Part shown: positions 45 through 50,346 of the stretch, piece by piece
Layout of the letters: every line of letters starts with the position of its first letter
Position numbering within the stretch: the first letter of the stretch is position 1
NCBI GenBank assembly: GCA_963666485.2
Contig: CAXXUO010000003.1
Location: forward strand, 256,001-320,000
Direction of reading: 5' to 3'
DNA length: 64,000 nt
DNA from: Syntrophorhabdaceae bacterium
Lineage (GTDB): Bacteria > Desulfobacterota > Syntrophorhabdia > Syntrophorhabdales > Syntrophorhabdaceae
The notes under the pieces: generated by a model
The model's input: only the letters and a program-made list of their open reading frames with translations
The model's database searches: none
What the model was told of the DNA's origin: nothing
Position numbers and translations under genes: made by a program

Positions 45-1565
45 ATGAAGCGCAGCATCATCCTGGCATTATGGATTCTTTTCCTGGCACATCCCGTTCT
101 TGCGGACAAGGGACCGATAATCTGGCAGGAAGGCGTAACCCTGACGCAACAGTCTCAGAAGGCAATAATAGCCCATAACGGATCAGGGCAGGTGCTGATA
201 CTTGGGACCGAGATGCGCGGGAACCGGGATGCGGATATTCTCGAATTCATACCTTTTCCCTCGGAGCCTGCCGTCGCAAAAGCCACCGGCGACCCTTTCG
301 CTGCGGCAGCACGGCTTATCACCCAAAAAGGCCTCGTATTTTTCAGAAGCGGGGATCACGTGGTGAAGGGAGGTCAAGGGAGTGAGGCAGCCACAGTCCC
401 CGTCGAGATTCTCATGTCGAAGAAGATCGGTCTTCATGACGTAACGGTGATCAAAATAAATGATGTCGGGGAATTCAGGGCCTGGTGTGAAGGATTTTTC
501 AGGCAAAAGGGCATCAGTGCGGACAATGAAAGGCTGTCTGCCGTATACGACAATGCCAGCGATTATACGCGCAGGGGATATACGTATTTTGTGTTCGACC
601 AGGTAAAGGTTTCCCATGAGATCCGTTTCATCGAGCCGCTCGTCTACAGATTTAAATCCGCGGCCATATATTACCCCCTGAAAACATCGAACCTTTTCGG
701 GGGCAGGGGAGATGTCGAGCTCATATTGCTCCTTCCCGGCTCTGTCATGAACGATGCATGGCAGAACATACGGGGGATCTTCGACATGTCCCGGGGGCCT
801 GCGATCGAGCTGAGCTCATCGTCGAAAGTGTATCGCAGCGAGTTGCGCCCGTTCGATCTCTCTTCTTTTTTCGGCCCCGGGTCGAAGATCTACATGCAGG
901 TACTGAAATACAGGGGCGTGTATAGCTTCAAAGATGATCTGTCGTATAGTATCAGCAAGCTCAGGCCGTACGCATACCGCTTTGAATCAACGCGATGGCA
1001 CGGTCAAAATAAAGAATTCACGCCCGATTTCACGCGGGAAGAGGTCCGCGATCTCAGGGAATTCTTCTGTCCGAAGAGTAGTGATCCCAATTACATGTTC
1101 GAGATGCTCGATTATTCGATCAACTGCTGGAGCTTCATTCCTAACGATGATTACGAGGTATATGCGGCAATCTTCAGAGATCCGCCGTCAGGCATCCCGC
1201 GGCGTGACGTTATACTGGGCAGAACAACGATAAAGAATACTCTCAAGGGATCGAAGCTGGCGCTTGATAAGACGCTCGTCAAGGATTTCAATGAAAAGAA
1301 CGTTGCCAGCCTGCCGCTCGAGAACGCGTTTCCCGATGATGAGAGCCTTGCCATTACATTTGAGGACGACAAATCCGGGAGAGTCCTTCCCGGCTCGGGC
1401 AAAACATACGTTTCACGCGTCGGTTTCGATCAGAAAAGAACAACGGCGCTTGTCTACGTGGATCACGCGTCGGGCCCGAGGTCGGGCGCAGAATATTACA
1501 TAACCCTGCGAAAAACTGACGGGAAATGGACGGTCGAGAAAGCGGTGATGGTGGGTGCACACTAA
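45..1565 (+). CDS. Secreted hypothetical protein, DUF2330-like N-terminal region plus an unknown C-terminal domain
   Basis: 506-aa ORF with signal peptide (MKRSIILALWILFLAHPVLA); QKAIIAH/FIPFPSEP/PLVYRF/YYPL motifs resemble DUF2330. Confidence 0.55.
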   Translation: MKRSIILALWILFLAHPVLADKGPIIWQEGVTLTQQSQKAIIAHNGSGQVLILGTEMRGNRDADILEFIPFPSEPAVAKATGDPFAAAARLITQKGLVFFRSGDHVVKGGQGSEAATVPVEILMSKKIGLHDVTVIKINDVGEFRAWCEGFFRQKGISADNERLSAVYDNASDYTRRGYTYFVFDQVKVSHEIRFIEPLVYRFKSAAIYYPLKTSNLFGGRGDVELILLLPGSVMNDAWQNIRGIFDMSRGPAIELSSSSKVYRSELRPFDLSSFFGPGSKIYMQVLKYRGVYSFKDDLSYSISKLRPYAYRFESTRWHGQNKEFTPDFTREEVRDLREFFCPKSSDPNYMFEMLDYSINCWSFIPNDDYEVYAAIFRDPPSGIPRRDVILGRTTIKNTLKGSKLALDKTLVKDFNEKNVASLPLENAFPDDESLAITFEDDKSGRVLPGSGKTYVSRVGFDQKRTTALVYVDHASGPRSGAEYYITLRKTDGKWTVEKAVMVGAH

Positions 1566-1570
1566 AAGAT

Positions 1571-1626
1571 GGTTCAAGGTTCAAGGTTCAAGGTTCAAGG
1601 TTCAAGGTTCAAGGTTCAAGGTTCAA
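1571..1626 (+). repeat. Tandem heptamer (GGTTCAA)x8
   Basis: Eight perfect copies starting 6 nt after the upstream stop codon. Confidence 0.97.
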
Positions 1627-1641
1627 AAGCAAACAACAACG

Positions 1642-1750
1642 GTCACCCCGGCGCTTGACACCGGGACCCAACCCTCCATCCGTCACCCCCGTGCTTGATG
1701 CCTCGATCCAACCCTCCATCCGTCATCCCGGTGCTTGACACCGGGATCCA
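1642..1750 (+). repeat. Three tandem 40-bp units carrying a CGTC-type REP-like palindrome
   Basis: Units start at 1642, 1682 and 1722; best copy CGTCATCCCGGTGCTTGACACCGGGATCCA with a CCCGGTG/CACCGGG stem. Confidence 0.85.
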
Positions 1751-1783
1751 AGCAACTGTGTTCGATGTCAACTGATTTCTTCT

Positions 1784-5088
<3,305 letters not shown>

Positions 5089-8505: not shown

Positions 8506-9393
8506 ATGTCGAATATAATACGGGAAACTAATTTTGACGCACTTGGCGCCCCTCGCAAAGGTAAAGTGAGGGACATTTACGATTTCGACGGCACATTACT
8601 GATCGTTGCCACGGACAGGCTGTCCGCGTTCGATGTTGTCCTTCCGACCGGCATAGAGGACAAAGGGAAGGTCCTTACCAAGCTTTCCCTTTTCTGGTTT
8701 GATAAGGTCAAGGACATTATCCCGAACCATATCATTGAAACCGACGCCGATAAATACCCTGACCTGTTGAAACAGTACTCCGGGTCCTTAAAGGACAGGA
8801 GCATGCTCGTGAAAAAGGCGAAGGTCCTGCCCGTGGAATGTGTCGTGCGCGGCTACCTCGCAGGGTCCGGCTGGGCTGAGTACCAGAAGTCCGGCACCGT
8901 GTGCGGAATCAAACTGCCCGGGGGCCTGAAGGAATCGTCTAAACTCGAGGCACCGATCTTTACGCCTTCAACAAAGGCGGAAGAAGGCCATGACCTGAAC
9001 ATTTCCTACGAGGAAGCGGTCAAGGTAATTGGCGAGGATTACGCGCGCAAACTTCGGGATTCCAGCATCGCGATCTACGAGAGGGCGCGCGATATCGCGG
9101 AAAAAAGAGGGATCATCGTTGCCGACACAAAGTTCGAGTTCGGTCTTATCGACGGCAGCGTCGTCCTGATCGACGAGGTGCTCACCCCCGATTCATCACG
9201 CTTCTGGTCTATTAAGGATTACGCTCCGGGCAAATCTCAGGACAGCTACGACAAGCAGATAGTGCGCGATTACCTGAATACCCTCGATTGGGGCAAGACA
9301 TACCCCGGCCCCGAGTTGCCTCCCGAGATCGCGAAAAAGACGTCGGAGAGGTACAAAGAGATCTATACGATATTGACGGGTGAACGGATTTAG
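8506..9393 (+). CDS. purC: SAICAR synthase
   Basis: GKVRDIY, DRLSAFD, ECVVRGY, ADTKFEFG, DEVLTPDSSRFW. Confidence 0.97.
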   Translation: MSNIIRETNFDALGAPRKGKVRDIYDFDGTLLIVATDRLSAFDVVLPTGIEDKGKVLTKLSLFWFDKVKDIIPNHIIETDADKYPDLLKQYSGSLKDRSMLVKKAKVLPVECVVRGYLAGSGWAEYQKSGTVCGIKLPGGLKESSKLEAPIFTPSTKAEEGHDLNISYEEAVKVIGEDYARKLRDSSIAIYERARDIAEKRGIIVADTKFEFGLIDGSVVLIDEVLTPDSSRFWSIKDYAPGKSQDSYDKQIVRDYLNTLDWGKTYPGPELPPEIAKKTSERYKEIYTILTGERI

Positions 9394-9511
9394 TTCAAAG
9401 TTCAAAGTTCAAGGTTCAAGGAAAAAAATGCCGCCCGGCTTTGAAGCCGGCGGCATTTTATTTTGAAGGGATTTTTTTCAGCCTTGAACTTTGAACATTG
9501 AACCTTGAACC
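9393..9511. repeat. Inverted GTTCAAR heptamer arrays flanking a terminator
   Basis: Four copies at 9393-9421 and four inverted copies at 9482-9511. Confidence 0.9.
9425..9464. terminator. Bidirectional intrinsic terminator between convergent purC and pdxA
   Basis: AAAATGCCGCCCGGCTT-TG-AAGCCGGCGGCATTTT hairpin with A and T tails. Confidence 0.75.
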
Positions 9512-9512
9512 G

Positions 9513-10442
9513 TCACTTAGTCATCGCGCATGCTGTCCTGTACGCTTCGATGAAGCTGGTCGGGTCCGCAATGCCGCGGCCGGCGATATCGAACCCTGTT
9601 CCATGGCCGGGCGATGTTCTGACAAAGGGCAGGCCCAGGGTAATGTTCACGGTCCTTTCGAAATCCACTGTTTTTACAGGTATGAGCCCCTGGTCATGGT
9701 ACATGGCAACGTAAGCATCACAATCAACACGGTGAAAGAGTGAATCTGCAGGGAAGGGGCCTGAGGCATTGATCCCGATTCCCCGTGCACGTTCGATTGC
9801 CCGTTGAATGATCTCTTCCTCATTTCCCATGATCCCCTGTTCGCCCGCGTGGGGGTTCAGCCCGCAGACCTTTATCGAAGGGTTTTTCAAGGACAGGCGC
9901 TGCTCGAGGGAACGGGAGGTGATCTGTATACAGTCAAAAACGGACCGCTCGGTGATCATCGCAGGGACGGTTTTAAGGGGAACGTGTATCGTCACGAGGC
10001 TTACGCGCATCACAGGGTTGGCAAGCATCATAACGTAGCTGCCGACACCGCCGAAATGAGCGAGGAGTTCAGTATGCCCTGGAAAGGGGACTCGGGCCAT
10101 GTTGAGCGACGCCTTGCTTATGGGACATGTCACTATCGCCCGGACCTGTCCGGCGAAAACGAGTTTCAGGGCCTCGAGGATGTATTCAAAGGAGGCGCGC
10201 CCGCAACGGGCGTCGGACGAGCCGGGCGAGATGATGTCCATGCGTTTGAGGTCCAGGAATTCGATGTCGCCCTGATTGCCGTGACCGGGATGCCGGAACG
10301 GATAACGGGGAAGAGAGGGCACGGACGTATACGCAGTTTCGAGCGCCTTTGCGTCCCCGATAATGAGCGGTATGGTTTCTCCCGTGATCTGCAGGAGTGA
10401 CTTGAGTATTATCTCGGGACCTATCCCGGCCGGATCGCCCAT
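9513..10442 (-). CDS. pdxA: 4-hydroxythreonine-4-phosphate dehydrogenase (true start probably up to 9 codons upstream)
   Basis: MGDPAGIGPE, GHTE, GLNPHAGE, MYHDQGL, RTSPGHGT. Confidence 0.95.
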   Translation of the reverse strand: MGDPAGIGPEIILKSLLQITGETIPLIIGDAKALETAYTSVPSLPRYPFRHPGHGNQGDIEFLDLKRMDIISPGSSDARCGRASFEYILEALKLVFAGQVRAIVTCPISKASLNMARVPFPGHTELLAHFGGVGSYVMMLANPVMRVSLVTIHVPLKTVPAMITERSVFDCIQITSRSLEQRLSLKNPSIKVCGLNPHAGEQGIMGNEEEIIQRAIERARGIGINASGPFPADSLFHRVDCDAYVAMYHDQGLIPVKTVDFERTVNITLGLPFVRTSPGHGTGFDIAGRGIADPTSFIEAYRTACAMTK

Positions 10443-16333: not shown

Positions 16334-16597
16334 GATGGGCGATAGGCTATGGGCAATAGGGGGGAACCACAACCCTTATTCCCGGCACCCATTAATAATT
16401 TCTGTCTTTTCTGTGGCCTATCGCCCATAGCCTATCGCCCATAGCCTATCGCCCATAGCCTATCGCCCATAGCCTATCGCCCATAGCCTATCGCCCATAG
16501 CCTATCGCCCATAGCCTATCGCCCATAGCCTATCGCCCATAGCCTATCGCCCATAGCCTATCGCCCATAGCCTATCGCCCATAGCCTATCGCCCATC
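16334..16597. repeat. 14-bp tandem array (CCTATCGCCCATAG)x12 plus a partial copy, with a short inverted arm
   Basis: Perfect copies 16417-16584, partial to 16596; inverted ~2-copy arm at 16334-16360. Confidence 0.96.
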
Positions 16598-19551: not shown

Positions 19552-19710
19552 GGCGTAAGGCTTCTTGTACGATTCACCTGTCAAGAATTTTTAAAAAAGG
19601 CCGGATATCTCCCGAGATACCTGACGTTAACAAAGGCCGTCATTCCGGCTTGCCGGAATCCAGTGTCTTTGTCTTTTAACGTCTTACGCCTTACGCCCTC
19701 ACGCCTTACG
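19548..19710. repeat. ~160-bp composite repeat, copy 1 (GTAAGGC arms with an internal REP)
   Basis: Near-identical to 50184-50346. Confidence 0.9.
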
Positions 19711-39050: not shown

Positions 39051-39059
39051 CTTTTTTTC

Positions 39060-39079
39060 GTAAGGCGTAAGGCGTAAGG
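39060..39079 (+). repeat. About three copies of the GTAAGGC heptamer after the tRNA
   Basis: GTAAGGCGTAAGGCGTAAGG. Confidence 0.8.
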
Positions 39080-39184
39080 AGTAGACGATAACACCTTGCG
39101 CCTTCCTTTTTTCTTTCGTTATGGCAGGCTTTCCCTCTATAATAGGTGCGGTTCTTCAATCTTTTAGACTTGGAATTTGGCGCG

Positions 39185-40759
39185 ATGCTGTCTATCTTTC
39201 CTTTTGAAAACGATATTCCCCCTGAAATGCTGAAAGGGATTCCCGTGGCCGGCAAAGACTATCTGCGCGAGGGGAGGGTGGACCACTGGCGGGGACCCTT
39301 CAGGGAAGTCCAGTCTCCGCTGCTCATGCGGACCGTCGCCGGTCTTTCTCAAAGGCGGATCGGTTCCGTTCCGTCTATGGATGAAGACGCATCCTTAAAC
39401 ATTCTTCGTGAGGCCCGGGGCGCATTCGGCAACGGCCGGGGGAAGTGGACCGCGATGCCTGCGTATGAAAGGGCTGCATGCTTCGAGGCATTCCTCAAGA
39501 AAATAGAGGAGTCGAGGGAGGACATTGTACGCCTTCTTCAGTGGGAAATAGGAAAGACGGCGCGGGAATCGGTCAATGAGTTCGAACGTGCACTTTCCTA
39601 CGCCCGGTCCTGCCTCAACGTGATCGCCGAACATGCGCATGCGAAAGGCAGCATCTTCGAAAGCGGTGGTATTTCGGGCACGCTTGACCGGACACCCCGG
39701 GGCACGGTCCTCATCATGGGCCCTTTCAATTATCCGCTTTTCGAAACGATGACAGCCATGGCCCCGGCTCTGCTTTCGGGTAACACGGTCATCATAAAGC
39801 CTCCGCGCCTGGGATGCCTCTTTTTTCAGCATATCTTGAGGCCTGTGGAGGAGATCTTCCCGAAAGGCACGGTCAATTTTGTGTACGGGGAAGGACGACG
39901 GATCATTCCCCCTCTTCTTTCTTCCGGAGGGATCGACGTCTTCTATTTTATCGGCACGAGCTCGGTTGCGGCCTATCTCCGGGGGCTTCACCCGAAGCCG
40001 CACCGGCTCAAGTGTATCCTCGGCCTCGAGGCGAAGAACCCGGCCATACTGTTGCCCGACACAGATATCGGTACGGCAGCGTCCGAATGCGCAAAGGGCG
40101 CGTTGACCTTCAACGGCCAGCGCTGCGCCGCCCTGAAAATACTGTTTGTCCATCGTTCTCTAGCGGAACGGTTCAACGAAGAATTCGTAAAGAACATCGC
40201 CGGGTTCAAGTTCGGGATGCCCTGGGAAGACGGCGTGGTCATAACACCCCTTGCGGAATCCGACAGGGCAGAGTACCTCTCCGGTCTGGTCGACGATGCG
40301 TTGGAACTTGGCGCACGTGTAATAAACGACGGGGGAGGGGATACGGCCGGCACCTTCTTCTACCCGGCCCTTTTGTACCCGGCATCCGCCGCCATGCGCG
40401 TCTGCAGGGAGGAGCAGTTCGGCCCTGTCGTGCCCATAGTTCCCTACGATGATCTGGAAGAGCCTCTGCGCTATATCAGGGATTCGAATTATGGACAGCA
40501 GGCGAGCATTTTCGGCCAGGACAGGGCGCAGTTAACTGAACTGGCAGATCACCTGGTCCACCATGTATCGCGCGTGAACATCAACTGTCAGTGCCAGCGA
40601 AGCCCCGACGCCATCCCGTTCACCGGCCGCAAAGACTCCGCGGAAGGAAGTCTCTCAACATCAGAAGCGGTAGAGGCTTTTACGGTACCAACGTTTATAG
40701 CAACGAAGACAGGTTCAAGGTTCAAAGTTCAAAGTTCAAAGTTCAAGGCTGGGTTGTAA
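39185..40759 (+). CDS. Aldehyde dehydrogenase family, non-phosphorylating NADP GAPDH (GapN)-like
   Basis: GPFNYP, LGLEAKN, GQRC catalytic Cys, EEQFGP. Confidence 0.8.
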   Translation: MLSIFPFENDIPPEMLKGIPVAGKDYLREGRVDHWRGPFREVQSPLLMRTVAGLSQRRIGSVPSMDEDASLNILREARGAFGNGRGKWTAMPAYERAACFEAFLKKIEESREDIVRLLQWEIGKTARESVNEFERALSYARSCLNVIAEHAHAKGSIFESGGISGTLDRTPRGTVLIMGPFNYPLFETMTAMAPALLSGNTVIIKPPRLGCLFFQHILRPVEEIFPKGTVNFVYGEGRRIIPPLLSSGGIDVFYFIGTSSVAAYLRGLHPKPHRLKCILGLEAKNPAILLPDTDIGTAASECAKGALTFNGQRCAALKILFVHRSLAERFNEEFVKNIAGFKFGMPWEDGVVITPLAESDRAEYLSGLVDDALELGARVINDGGGDTAGTFFYPALLYPASAAMRVCREEQFGPVVPIVPYDDLEEPLRYIRDSNYGQQASIFGQDRAQLTELADHLVHHVSRVNINCQCQRSPDAIPFTGRKDSAEGSLSTSEAVEAFTVPTFIATKTGSRFKVQSSKFKAGL

Positions 40760-40854
40760 AGGTTCCGATCATGCAGGACAGTCAGCCCTTCTCCGATTGA
40801 AGTCTTGCACCGGTATGTTTTTAACGTTGAACCTTGAACGTTGAACCTTGAACC
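40712..40854. repeat. Inverted GGTTCAA heptamer arrays between convergent genes
   Basis: Five copies at 40712-40748; inverted copies at 40821-40854. Confidence 0.9.
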
Positions 40855-40859
40855 ATCTT

Positions 40860-41969
40860 TTACGTTCTATTCCACGCCTTCCATTTCATCTTGAACGCCT
40901 CTGCCACTGCCGGATGGGTTATGGTGCCTCGCCGCATGTTTATCCCTGAAGCGATCGTGAGGTCGCGCTCCGCGGCTTTCTTGACGCCCTGGGATGCAAG
41001 GGTGCGTACGTAGGGCAGTGTAGCGTTCGCGAGGGCAAATGTCGCTGTCCTGGGGACGGATGCCGGCATGTTGGGAACTGCGTAATGTATGACGTCGTAG
41101 AGTTTGTATATCGGCTCCGCGTGTGATGTCGGGCGTATTGTCTCGACTGAGCCCCCCTGGTCGATCGAAACGTCGACGATGATCGAGCCGGGTTTCATGC
41201 GGGAAACCATCTGCTCGGTAACAAGGACCGGTGCACGGGCGCCGGGCACGAGGACGGCGCCGATGACGACGTCTGCAACCTCAAGGATCTTTTGAATCGA
41301 GTACGGCGTCGAGTATAACGTGGTCACGCAGCCGTGCATTATGTCCTCGACATAGCGCAATCTCTCGTGGGAGATGTCGAATACCGTTACATGGGCACCC
41401 AGGCCGGAGGCGATTGCGGCCGCATTCAATCCCACGATGCCGCAGCCGATGATGACGACTTCGGCCGGGGCGACGCCGGGAACACCGCTCAAAAGGATGC
41501 CGCGTCCGCCGTAATCCGACTCGAGAAAACGCATCGCCACCTGCACGGATATACGCCCCGCCACCTCGCTCATGGGAATGAGAAGGGGAAGGCGGCCATC
41601 CTTGTCTTCCATCGTTTCGTACGCTATCCCTGTTATTTTCCGTTTGAGTAGTCCCAGTGTAAGTTTTTCCGAGGATGCGAGGTGGAGGTATGTAAAGGCT
41701 ATCTGCCCCTCCTGCAGGAGGGGCCATTCCACCTCGAGGGGCTCTTTGACCTTCACTATCATATCCGACCGGGCGAATACGGACCGCCTGTTGTCGACGA
41801 CCTCCGCGCCCTGGTTTGCGTATTCTTCGTCCGTAAGGCCGCTTCCGAGGCCGGCCCCTTTCTCGACGAGGACGCTGTGTCCATCGAGAACAAGGGCATG
41901 AACGCCGGCAGGCGTCATCGATACCCGGTTTTCACCTTCTTTGATCTCTTTCGGTATGCCTACTATCAT
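40860..41969 (-). CDS. ald: Alanine dehydrogenase
   Basis: [33 protein letters not shown]. Confidence 0.95.
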
Positions 41970-43882: not shown

Positions 43883-44078
43883 GGATTTCCCCACCTCCGT
43901 CATTCCGGCGAAGGCCGGATTTCCCCACCTCCGTCATTCCGGCGAAGGCCGGAATCCAGGGTCTTTGTTGTTTCTGTTATTCAATAATATTCAAGAGTTG
44001 TAGTAAATCACTTTTAGTTTACGCATAGCGTTGATCAACAAAAAAAGACACTGGACCCCGGCCTTCGCCGGGGTGACG
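43883..44078. repeat. Cluster of CGTC-type REP palindromes (two tandem, one inverted)
   Basis: CGTCATTCCGGCGAAGGCCGG at 43898 and 43932; inverted copy 44044-44078. Confidence 0.88.
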
Positions 44079-49071: not shown

Positions 49072-50187
49072 ATGGGTGAGTATACTTTGGCGGCTACGGC
49101 GGCATTTGGGCTCGAGGCGGTGGTGGCGCGGGAACTGAAGGGTCTCGGGTACGAAAATAGCTCGGTCGAAAATGGCCGGGTGTTGTTTTCGGGCGAGGAA
49201 AAGGATATTGCACGGGCGAATATCTGGCTCAGATGTGCGGACCGGGTCCTCATGAGAGTGGGGCAGTTCCGGGCGGGGGATTTCGAGGAGCTGTTTCAGG
49301 GAGTGCGCACTATACCGTGGGGACGGTATATATCTTCGACGGGGGTGGTCAACGTGACGGGCCGGTCCGTCAAATCGGTGTTGACGAGCATCCCGGCGTG
49401 CCAGTCCGTCGTCAAGAAGGCCATCATGGAGTCAATGAAAAAGCGGTACGGGCTGGAACATTTTCCCGAAGACGGTCCCGTGCACGGGATCGAGTTCTCG
49501 CTCGAGGGCGACGTCGCGGCTGTGTACATGGACACGACGGGGCCGGGACTCCATAAGCGCGGTTACAGGACGGGTACAGGGCAGGCGGCCCTGAGGGAAA
49601 CCCTGGCGGCCGGTCTTGTGATACTGAGCCGTTGGAAACCGGGTATGCCTTTCGTTGACCCCTTCTGCGGGTCCGGGACCATAGCGATCGAAGCCGCGAT
49701 GATAGGCTGGAACATCGCCCCCGGTCTAAACAGGGAATTTGCATCGGAGAAATGGAAATTCATTGCCCCCGACATATGGGGGAAGGCCCGCCGTCTTGCG
49801 CACAAGGAGGAGCGGAAGGTCACGCTGGATATAACGGCATCGGATATCGATGATCACGTTATCGTCAAAGCACGGCACAACGCGCGGCACGCAGGCGTCC
49901 TGTCAGCCATTAAATTTGAGAGACGCACCATAAGGGACCTTACATTCCCCGCGGAACGAGGCATCGTTGTCTGCAATCCTCCCTACGGCGAGAGGTCGGG
50001 GGATAAAAAAGCCGCAGGCGAATTGATGAAAGAAATGCGGGAAACATTCGATCGCGCCCGCGACTGGTCGTTCTTTGTGTTCACAGGTCTTGAAGATTTC
50101 GAGAAGTACTACGGAAAACACGCCGATTCCAACCGTAAGCTGTATAATGGGAGGATAAAGTGTTATCTGTATCAGTTCAAATCGTAA
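49072..50187 (+). CDS. THUMP-domain class I SAM RNA methyltransferase (RlmL-like)
   Basis: GLEAVV, LHKRGYR, DPFCGSGT, NPPYG. Confidence 0.88.
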   Translation: MGEYTLAATAAFGLEAVVARELKGLGYENSSVENGRVLFSGEEKDIARANIWLRCADRVLMRVGQFRAGDFEELFQGVRTIPWGRYISSTGVVNVTGRSVKSVLTSIPACQSVVKKAIMESMKKRYGLEHFPEDGPVHGIEFSLEGDVAAVYMDTTGPGLHKRGYRTGTGQAALRETLAAGLVILSRWKPGMPFVDPFCGSGTIAIEAAMIGWNIAPGLNREFASEKWKFIAPDIWGKARRLAHKEERKVTLDITASDIDDHVIVKARHNARHAGVLSAIKFERRTIRDLTFPAERGIVVCNPPYGERSGDKKAAGELMKEMRETFDRARDWSFFVFTGLEDFEKYYGKHADSNRKLYNGRIKCYLYQFKS

Positions 50188-50346
50188 GGCGTAAGGCGTA
50201 AGGCGTAAGGCTTTTCTTCACCTGTCAAGAATTTTTAAAAAAGGCCAGATATCTGCCGGGATATCAGACGTTAACAAAGGCCGTCATTCCGGCTTGCCGG
50301 AATCCAGTGTCTTTGTTTTTTAACGCCTTACGCTCTCACGCCTTAC
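50184..50346. repeat. ~160-bp composite repeat, copy 2
   Basis: (GTAAGGC)x4, shared core, REP, GCCTTAC-like arm; near-identical to 19548-19710. Confidence 0.9.

Follow-up and report, generated by a model that had tools for sequence, protein, structure and literature searches.

The window, that is, the whole 64,000-nucleotide stretch of DNA analysed, contains an intact IS110 element of the IS621 type that splits a CGTC-type REP at ATCCA-AG-GTTTT. Insertion is very probably (probability about 0.88) RNA-guided and sequence-based, directed at a 12-mer that in the host is confined to one REP subfamily. The evidence for this reading is the insertion site, the pattern of the copies in the genome, the match of the guides to the site and the covariation of guides and sites among relatives; a circular intermediate, an active promoter, a bridge RNA and recombination would complete it.

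The body of the element (1753-2931, minus strand, 1179 nt) lies between two convergent genes, a 506-aa ORF (45-1565, plus strand) and the gene for RNase R (5088-2983, minus strand). The product of the 506-aa ORF has a signal-peptide-like start and no Pfam match. The recombinase gene (1784-2719, minus strand) encodes 311 aa with profile matches to PF01548 (2e-26) and PF02371 (4.7e-19). Residues D9, E53, D95, D98 and S233 align to the acidic and serine motifs of IS621 and ISCro4, the only relatives of the recombinase with solved structures, and the protein is predicted to combine the DEDD RuvC-like domain and the C-terminal serine domain of the IS110 group. The named holders closest to this element are Syntrophorhabdus records. 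The left end is 212 nt long (2720-2931) and the right end 31 nt (1753-1783); long terminal repeats are absent. The right end carries a predicted -35 box, TTGACA (1766-1771, minus strand), and the left end its predicted -10 partner, TATGAT (2929-2924, minus strand). Across the computed circle junction, and only there, the two would form a sigma-70 promoter with the spacing TTGACA-17-TATGAT. As expected, this promoter is absent from a promoter scan of the linear locus, and a terminator scan of the linear locus gave nothing above chance.

The split REP (1721-1750, plus strand) consists of a CGTC tag, a ATCCCGGT/ACCGGGAT stem and a CCA tail, and it is the last of three units with a period of 40 nt (1641, 1681 and 1721). 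The REP ends in ATCCA, which forms the right target (RT) and reads TGGAT on the element's strand. The REP's displaced T-rich tail, GTTTTGG (2934-2940, plus strand), forms the left target (LT), CCAAAAC in the element's orientation. The core, CT on the minus strand of the element and AG on the plus strand, is found at 1751-1752 at the right-end junction and again at 2932-2933 at the left-end junction. When the 1179-nt body and one AG are removed computationally, the site reads GGGATCCA-AG-GTTTTGG. These features bear out the original prediction that the IS110 had entered the tail of a CGTC-REP, and the ATCCA tails that it had compared with this site are indeed present at 19658, 43954, 50302 and 59846. 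It had also held that only the hit copy has the AG. This is true within the window, where a search that missed the degenerate middle unit at 1681 (tail AC) found eight REP-like units, of which 1721 alone has an AG tail; two minus-strand REPs that it had not listed, at 44078 and 60011, have GT and GC tails. Genome-wide the statement fails, as 96 of 331 REPs carry AG.

These 331 REPs were found by a pattern search of the host genome (99% complete), with the empty sites restored. The pattern required GTCA and part of the end motif, so that only the C before it and the exact tail are free tests. C precedes GTC in 322 of the 331, a CCA tail is present in 305, and the stem starts with AT in 310. Stems are mostly 8-9 bp; the stem/loop combinations 8/4 and 9/5 account for 145 REPs, and loops of 2, 3 or 7 nt for 90 more. 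Neighbouring REPs within 250 nt of one another are mainly arranged with the tags outside (96 pairs, with 11 tag-inside and 38 tandem). The repeats fit the CGTC class described by Di Nocera 2013 (PMC3733652), sharing, as far as the available part of that text goes, the tag, the mostly 8-9 bp stem starting with AT, the CCA tail, the tag-outward dimers and the lack of a RAYT; the loops of 2, 3 and 7 nt fall outside the 4-5 nt given there. No PF01797 (Y1 transposase, RAYT) match is present in the host genome. Y1_Tnp genes are common elsewhere in the genus as open frames of about 290-370 aa (for example, loci L194 of G022 and L197 of G020), with PF01797 in 17 of 19 relatives, and loci such as L194 and L197 are not flanked by CGTC-REPs. 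A RAYT partner or REPtron was rejected, as a REP lies within about 1.5 kb at only 2 of 30 Y1 loci of the genus, and on one side only.

The dinucleotide following the REP tail is most often GT (115), AG (96) or GC (63). With the filled sites restored to empty, ATCCAAGGTTTT is present in 30 of the 331 REPs and ACCCAAGGTTTT in 35. The genome contains four near-identical full copies of the element (C2, C3, C5 and C8), each with the CT core at both junctions, and one truncated copy (C4). With the element taken out, each of the four full copies leaves ATCCA-AG-GTTTT closing a CGTC hairpin, and the insertion point within ATCCAAGGTTTT is identical in all of them. REP tail sites make up 4.4e-5 of all strand positions, and the chance that four of four copies would fall in a class of 30 among 331 REPs is 5.6e-5 (hypergeometric). 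To the question whether copies sit only in ATCCAAGGTTTT tails once all REPs are listed, the four full copies answer yes; the truncated fifth keeps its left-end junction, AG-GTTTTT, and has lost its REP side. In C4 (148764-149178) there are also small changes in the donor loop, and three copies of a repeat of about 35 nt, GGGGACGTCCTTAAGAAAGTAAGTAAC, from an unrelated repeat family, stand in place of the lost part.

The 12-mer ATCCA-AG-GTTTT occurs 31 times in the emptied genome, every time in a REP hairpin (30 strict, one with a GTGA tag). Four of these sites are filled and 27 are empty. REPs with ACCCA-AG-GTTTT are not occupied (0/35), and the probability that all four copies would have ATCCA, given 67 CCAAGGTTTT REPs, is 0.036. 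Among 20 hairpins of another type (GGCC..GAGCC), the single copy with ATCCA is the filled one, and the choice therefore follows the 12-mer rather than the hairpin. Since the guides do not match GT or GC tails, the AG subfamily is the proper comparison for the landing site. The expectation that targeting of this family would provide many intergenic landing sites is correct as to position, because 26 of the 27 empty exact sites lie outside long ORFs, although such ORFs, gauged in the same rough way, take up 83% of the genome. It is too generous as to number: the 12-mer is confined to the foot of the stem and the tail in a single CGTC-REP subfamily, so that the pool is about 31 almost wholly intergenic sites, four of them filled, or about a tenth of the family and not all 331 REPs.

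The host genome offers only four full copies. Their shared flanks might instead reflect one old insertion that was duplicated together with its REP, or a mis-assembly. The same hairpin occurs in three of the four left flanks, and four related loci (L027, L075, L078 and L081) share flanks crosswise in a way that suggests mis-joins there. Yet the flanks of the host copies diverge directly after the REP and after GTTTT, the hairpin of C5 is a different one, and the pattern recurs in G020 and at loci L071-L074 and L082. In run X1, possibly the source sample, the depth of the element is 12.8 vs 3.2-3.3 in its flanks, as expected for about four copies. Duplication or mis-assembly is hardly credible on these grounds. 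Neither a circle junction nor an empty-site joint was seen in four runs, three of which are contigs and one of which (X23) has 2 reads; X1 and X4 represent one sample, X5 holds related pieces only, and runs with a small share were left out.

The left end folds as a stem with an internal loop that has TAAAAACC on its 5' side and ATCCAAG on its 3' side, and it is predicted to encode a bridge RNA whose two loops fit target and donor. The putative target-binding loop (2808-2869, minus strand) contains the left target guide (LTG) TAAAAACC at 2855-2848, read as AAAAACC, and the right target guide (RTG), read as ATCCAAG, at 2830-2824. The target reads CCAAAAC-CT-TGGAT in the element's orientation; the RTG is complementary to the core and RT at 7 of 7 positions, and the LTG equals 5 of 7 LT bases plus the C of the core. 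The putative donor-binding loop (2744-2809, minus strand) contains the left donor guide (LDG) ACAGTTGC at 2789-2782, which equals the right end plus the C of the core, and the right donor guide (RDG) at 2759-2749, whose complementarity, judged by eye, covers the core and TGT and, beyond a bulge of 3 nt, resumes at ATG of the left end. Because part of the LDG is paired in the donor-loop fold, this loop was read by sequence. The single-sequence fold of the left end is not better than those of shuffled sequences (z = -1.23). A consensus fold over nine left ends shows the target loop, with two-sided changes in 5 of 45 pairs.

Parsing succeeded for 28 of 102 loci, including five apparently mis-registered ones that stay in the count (L086, L089, L090, L099 and L101), and gave 20 distinct guide pairs for a comparison of guides with targets. 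RT matches amount to 85 of 100 positions (mean 32.5 and maximum 58 in 20,000 shuffles) and LT matches to 87 of 140 (mean 47.1 and maximum 68 in 20,000 shuffles). Related elements are not independent, so the shuffles overstate the case and provide no clean P value. The LTG fails to match at its two outer positions (4 and 6 of 20).

Relatives in other genomes and metagenomes provide natural controls. Metagenome loci L071-L074 and L082, whose recombinases are 80-87% identical to that in the window, are all inserted in CGTC-REP tails by eye (5/5), and in G020 all three right junctions are in CGTC-REPs. At L072 the RTG is ACCCAAG and the element is located in an ACCCA REP, the subtype that is unhit in the host genome. 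At L074 the LTG is ..CAAACC, with a C at the fifth left-guide position, and the element is located at a GTTTG tail. One-base changes in the guides thus accompany neighbouring REP subtypes. Three cases are discordant. L073 is at the same REP site while its guides read TAAATAC and CGTGGAC; L010 combines a REP-type RTG with heptamer surroundings, and its right junction is broken; and the partial element of G025 (L023/L155) has the RT TGGAT without a full REP.

L073, in a REP despite its mismatched guide, would suit a recombinase protein that itself recognises REP hairpins or tails, the guide match being incidental. Older work credits transposases with the choice of REPs, in the available part of the text for IS3-family elements (Tobes and Pareja, PMC1525189). 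Against protein recognition, single-base changes in guide and target go together at L072 and L074, guides and targets covary across the 20 guide pairs, and targeting by bridge RNA has been demonstrated for IS621 (PMC11208160, available part). We regard recognition by the protein as most improbable. The original prediction that CGTC-type REPs are targeted through the bridge guides is supported, since the guides match the site and covary with it in relatives, and targeting would be by RNA.

A sister group at 80-85% identity has the RTG GTTCCAG, and its RT is GGAAC at 27 of 28 right junctions, none of which is in a REP (0/28). One identical element accounts for 20 of the 28 junctions (7, plus 13 from the list of 47 for G009), and three come from G016 and five from G026; GGAAC right flanks are found at 3/3 in G016 and 5/5 in G026. 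Of 24 left flanks in G009, 20 can be read as a heptamer unit, for example CTGAAAC; on the right, 12 of the identical element's 20 flanks continue into a further heptamer unit. The targets of the GTTCCAG sisters, which are mostly located in 7-bp tandem arrays, are (CCTGAAA/CCTGGAA)n arrays. G009 and G016 hold 44 and 33 CGTC-REPs, respectively. The AG-tailed 15-mer is absent from both (0 and 0), so that neither genome has two kinds of CT-core site on offer and the avoidance of REPs there does not amount to a choice. The heptamer-type site has 2 copies in the host genome, and TGAAC-CT-TGAAC sites, four mismatches from the element's target, number 354. At least 47 right-end junctions of the heptamer sister were found in G009, mostly where contigs stop; so large a burst has probably fragmented the assembly.

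It could be that the guides read the 12-mer and that the adjacent REP hairpin is needed too, as in ISPpu10. Every exact site in the host genome adjoins a hairpin, which makes sequence and structure inseparable there, and the available part of Na et al. (bioRxiv 10.64898/2026.03.19.712850) describes a stem-loop requirement in an IS110 REP target. Such dual recognition is unlikely, given that sisters of 80-85% identity enter heptamer arrays with no REP at 28 junctions. The geometry also differs: the hairpin here is on the RT side, with only the last two stem bases in the target, and in ISPpu10 a 5' stem-loop pairs with LT.

Distant relatives are located, by eye, in other heptamer arrays (L029, L092-L098 and L106), in other CGTC-like or GTAG-like palindromes (L085, L089 and L103) and at apparent ends of other elements (L012-L017). 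The element at L029 (G063), 56% identical, is in a (TTACGCC)n-type array with a matching LTG, ATTACGCC, and an RTG complementary to CTCACGA; this second heptamer family occurs in the window too. L083, 69% identical, is in the loop of a long palindrome, with guides that match at 6/7 and 5/5 positions.

Heptamer arrays are also a feature of the host. A (GGTTCAA)8 array (1571-1626, plus strand) precedes the REPs at the insertion site; it belongs to the repeat class targeted by the sister elements and differs from the element's own target at 4 of 10 non-core positions. Further 7-bp arrays are found in the window at 9392-9520, 16416-16596, 39058-39083, 40712-40862 and 50182-50207, and some of the window's arrays finish in CCGTC or similar. 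The host genome has 250 7-bp arrays with at least three exact units, often as inverted pairs, with the units AACCTTG (57), AACGGCT (43), AACGTGG (34), AAGGCGT (16) and ATCGCCC (13). One CAAGGTT unit of the commonest array lies within the AG-type REP tail. A 117-nt composite repeat (19573-19689 and 50217-50333, 94% identical) combines a REP, an upstream palindrome and flanking CGTAAGG heptamers.

It is rather probable that one lineage hops between REP tails and 7-bp arrays, which are unrelated repeat families of the host, by way of a shared AAC-CT core and 4-5 changes in the guides. In a tree of 30 hand-picked rows among 79 near-full-length proteins (L104 and L105 left out, labels by eye), the five REP-tail rows form one branch (100/98). 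The tree gives no order for the switch between REPs and heptamers, as the node that joins the REP-tail rows to two heptamer groups is not settled.

To our knowledge CGTC-REPs have no transposase, and they would gain a mobiliser if the bridge recombinase, beyond being a tenant, had helped to spread the AG-tailed subfamily. Of 69 genomes of the family, only 9 have the AG tail, and three of these have it in abundance (77, 36 and 23 sites); REP-type element ends occur in the host and G020, two of the three AG-rich genomes, and in G025, and the host has no Y1 transposase. Counting against a role in spread, no element was found in G019, which has 36 AG-tailed sites, and GT- and GC-tailed REPs are more numerous yet lack the core. 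We consider this role a long shot.

By analogy with IS621, the element would excise as a circle, and its joined ends would form the sigma-70 promoter for transcription of the bridge RNA encoded in the left end. In this RNA, the donor loop would read the element's own junction, ACAGTTG-CT-TGTAT, and the target loop AAAAC-CT-TGGAT. The guides would choose by sequence, telling REP subtypes apart by single bases, and the sisters appear to have re-aimed the same guides to other REP subtypes and to 7-bp tandem arrays.

The mechanism and REP-targeting IS110 elements are already known; the CGTC-REP tail site and the retargeting series between REPs and heptamers were not found in print. Searches of the literature outside subscription papers and ISfinder turned up neither insertion at CGTC-REP tails nor IS110 elements in heptamer arrays, and the available parts of PMC6006769 and bioRxiv 10.64898/2026.08.14.744561 contain neither. 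The target and RNA of L074 are present as an unlabelled bare sequence row in the covariation input of the Durrant 2024 supplement (PMC11208160); this element's guide and the heptamer-type guides are not among the rows listed in its available part. In the available text of Di Nocera 2013 (PMC3733652), CGTC repeats are reported for S. meliloti, links of such repeats to other transposase genes are considered only fortuitous, and the word 'delta' does not occur.

Every copy of ISPpu9, ISPpu10, ISPa11 and ISRm19 occupies a single fixed base in the REPs of its host (PMC1525189; Na et al. 2026, available parts), in other REP families and at other positions than this element, although the REP of ISRm19 may be CGTC-type. 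Targeting of a CGTC-type repeat by an IS110 element has a precedent in the Nf1 prophage of Neisseria. The Nf1 integrase is the IS110 protein, which fits the published descriptions of this prophage. According to the available parts of the sources, dRS3 of Neisseria is CGTC-1 (Di Nocera 2013, PMC3733652), and the IS110-encoding prophage Nf1/MDA integrates at CT in a dRS3 subtype (PMC7058167, PMC3898611). Both systems thus place an IS110-encoding element at CT in one subtype of a CGTC-class repeat; in dRS3 the CT is inside the palindrome (ATTCCCRCCTRCGCGGRAAK) and the element carries phage cargo, whereas in the window a plain IS is found at a CT that comes after the REP's CCA tail.

A close parallel is to IS621 of E. 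coli and ISCro4 (PMC11208160, available part; PDB 8wt6, 9t56), which share with this element the PF01548 and PF02371 recombinase (E 1.8e-35 and 4e-38), the CT core, the long left end with a two-loop bridge RNA and the junction promoter (both predicted here), and a REP target. The IS621 site is ATCAGGCCTAC, and the target here is the stem foot and tail of a CGTC-type REP, so that the REP-targeting habit of bridge recombinases extends to this tail, in an anaerobic lineage. The RTG pairs over 7 nt and is of the extended kind that Durrant 2024 notes for some orthologues (PMC11208160, available part); a right guide of 7 nt that tells single bases apart may be of interest to developers of tools. The known mechanism is left unchanged by these results. 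What they add to it is a compact natural retargeting series, in which recombinases 80-87% identical differ by one guide base for a neighbouring REP subtype and by 4-5 bases for 7-bp arrays, and which makes testable both the movement of guides between safe multi-copy landing sites and the need for a hairpin beyond base pairing.
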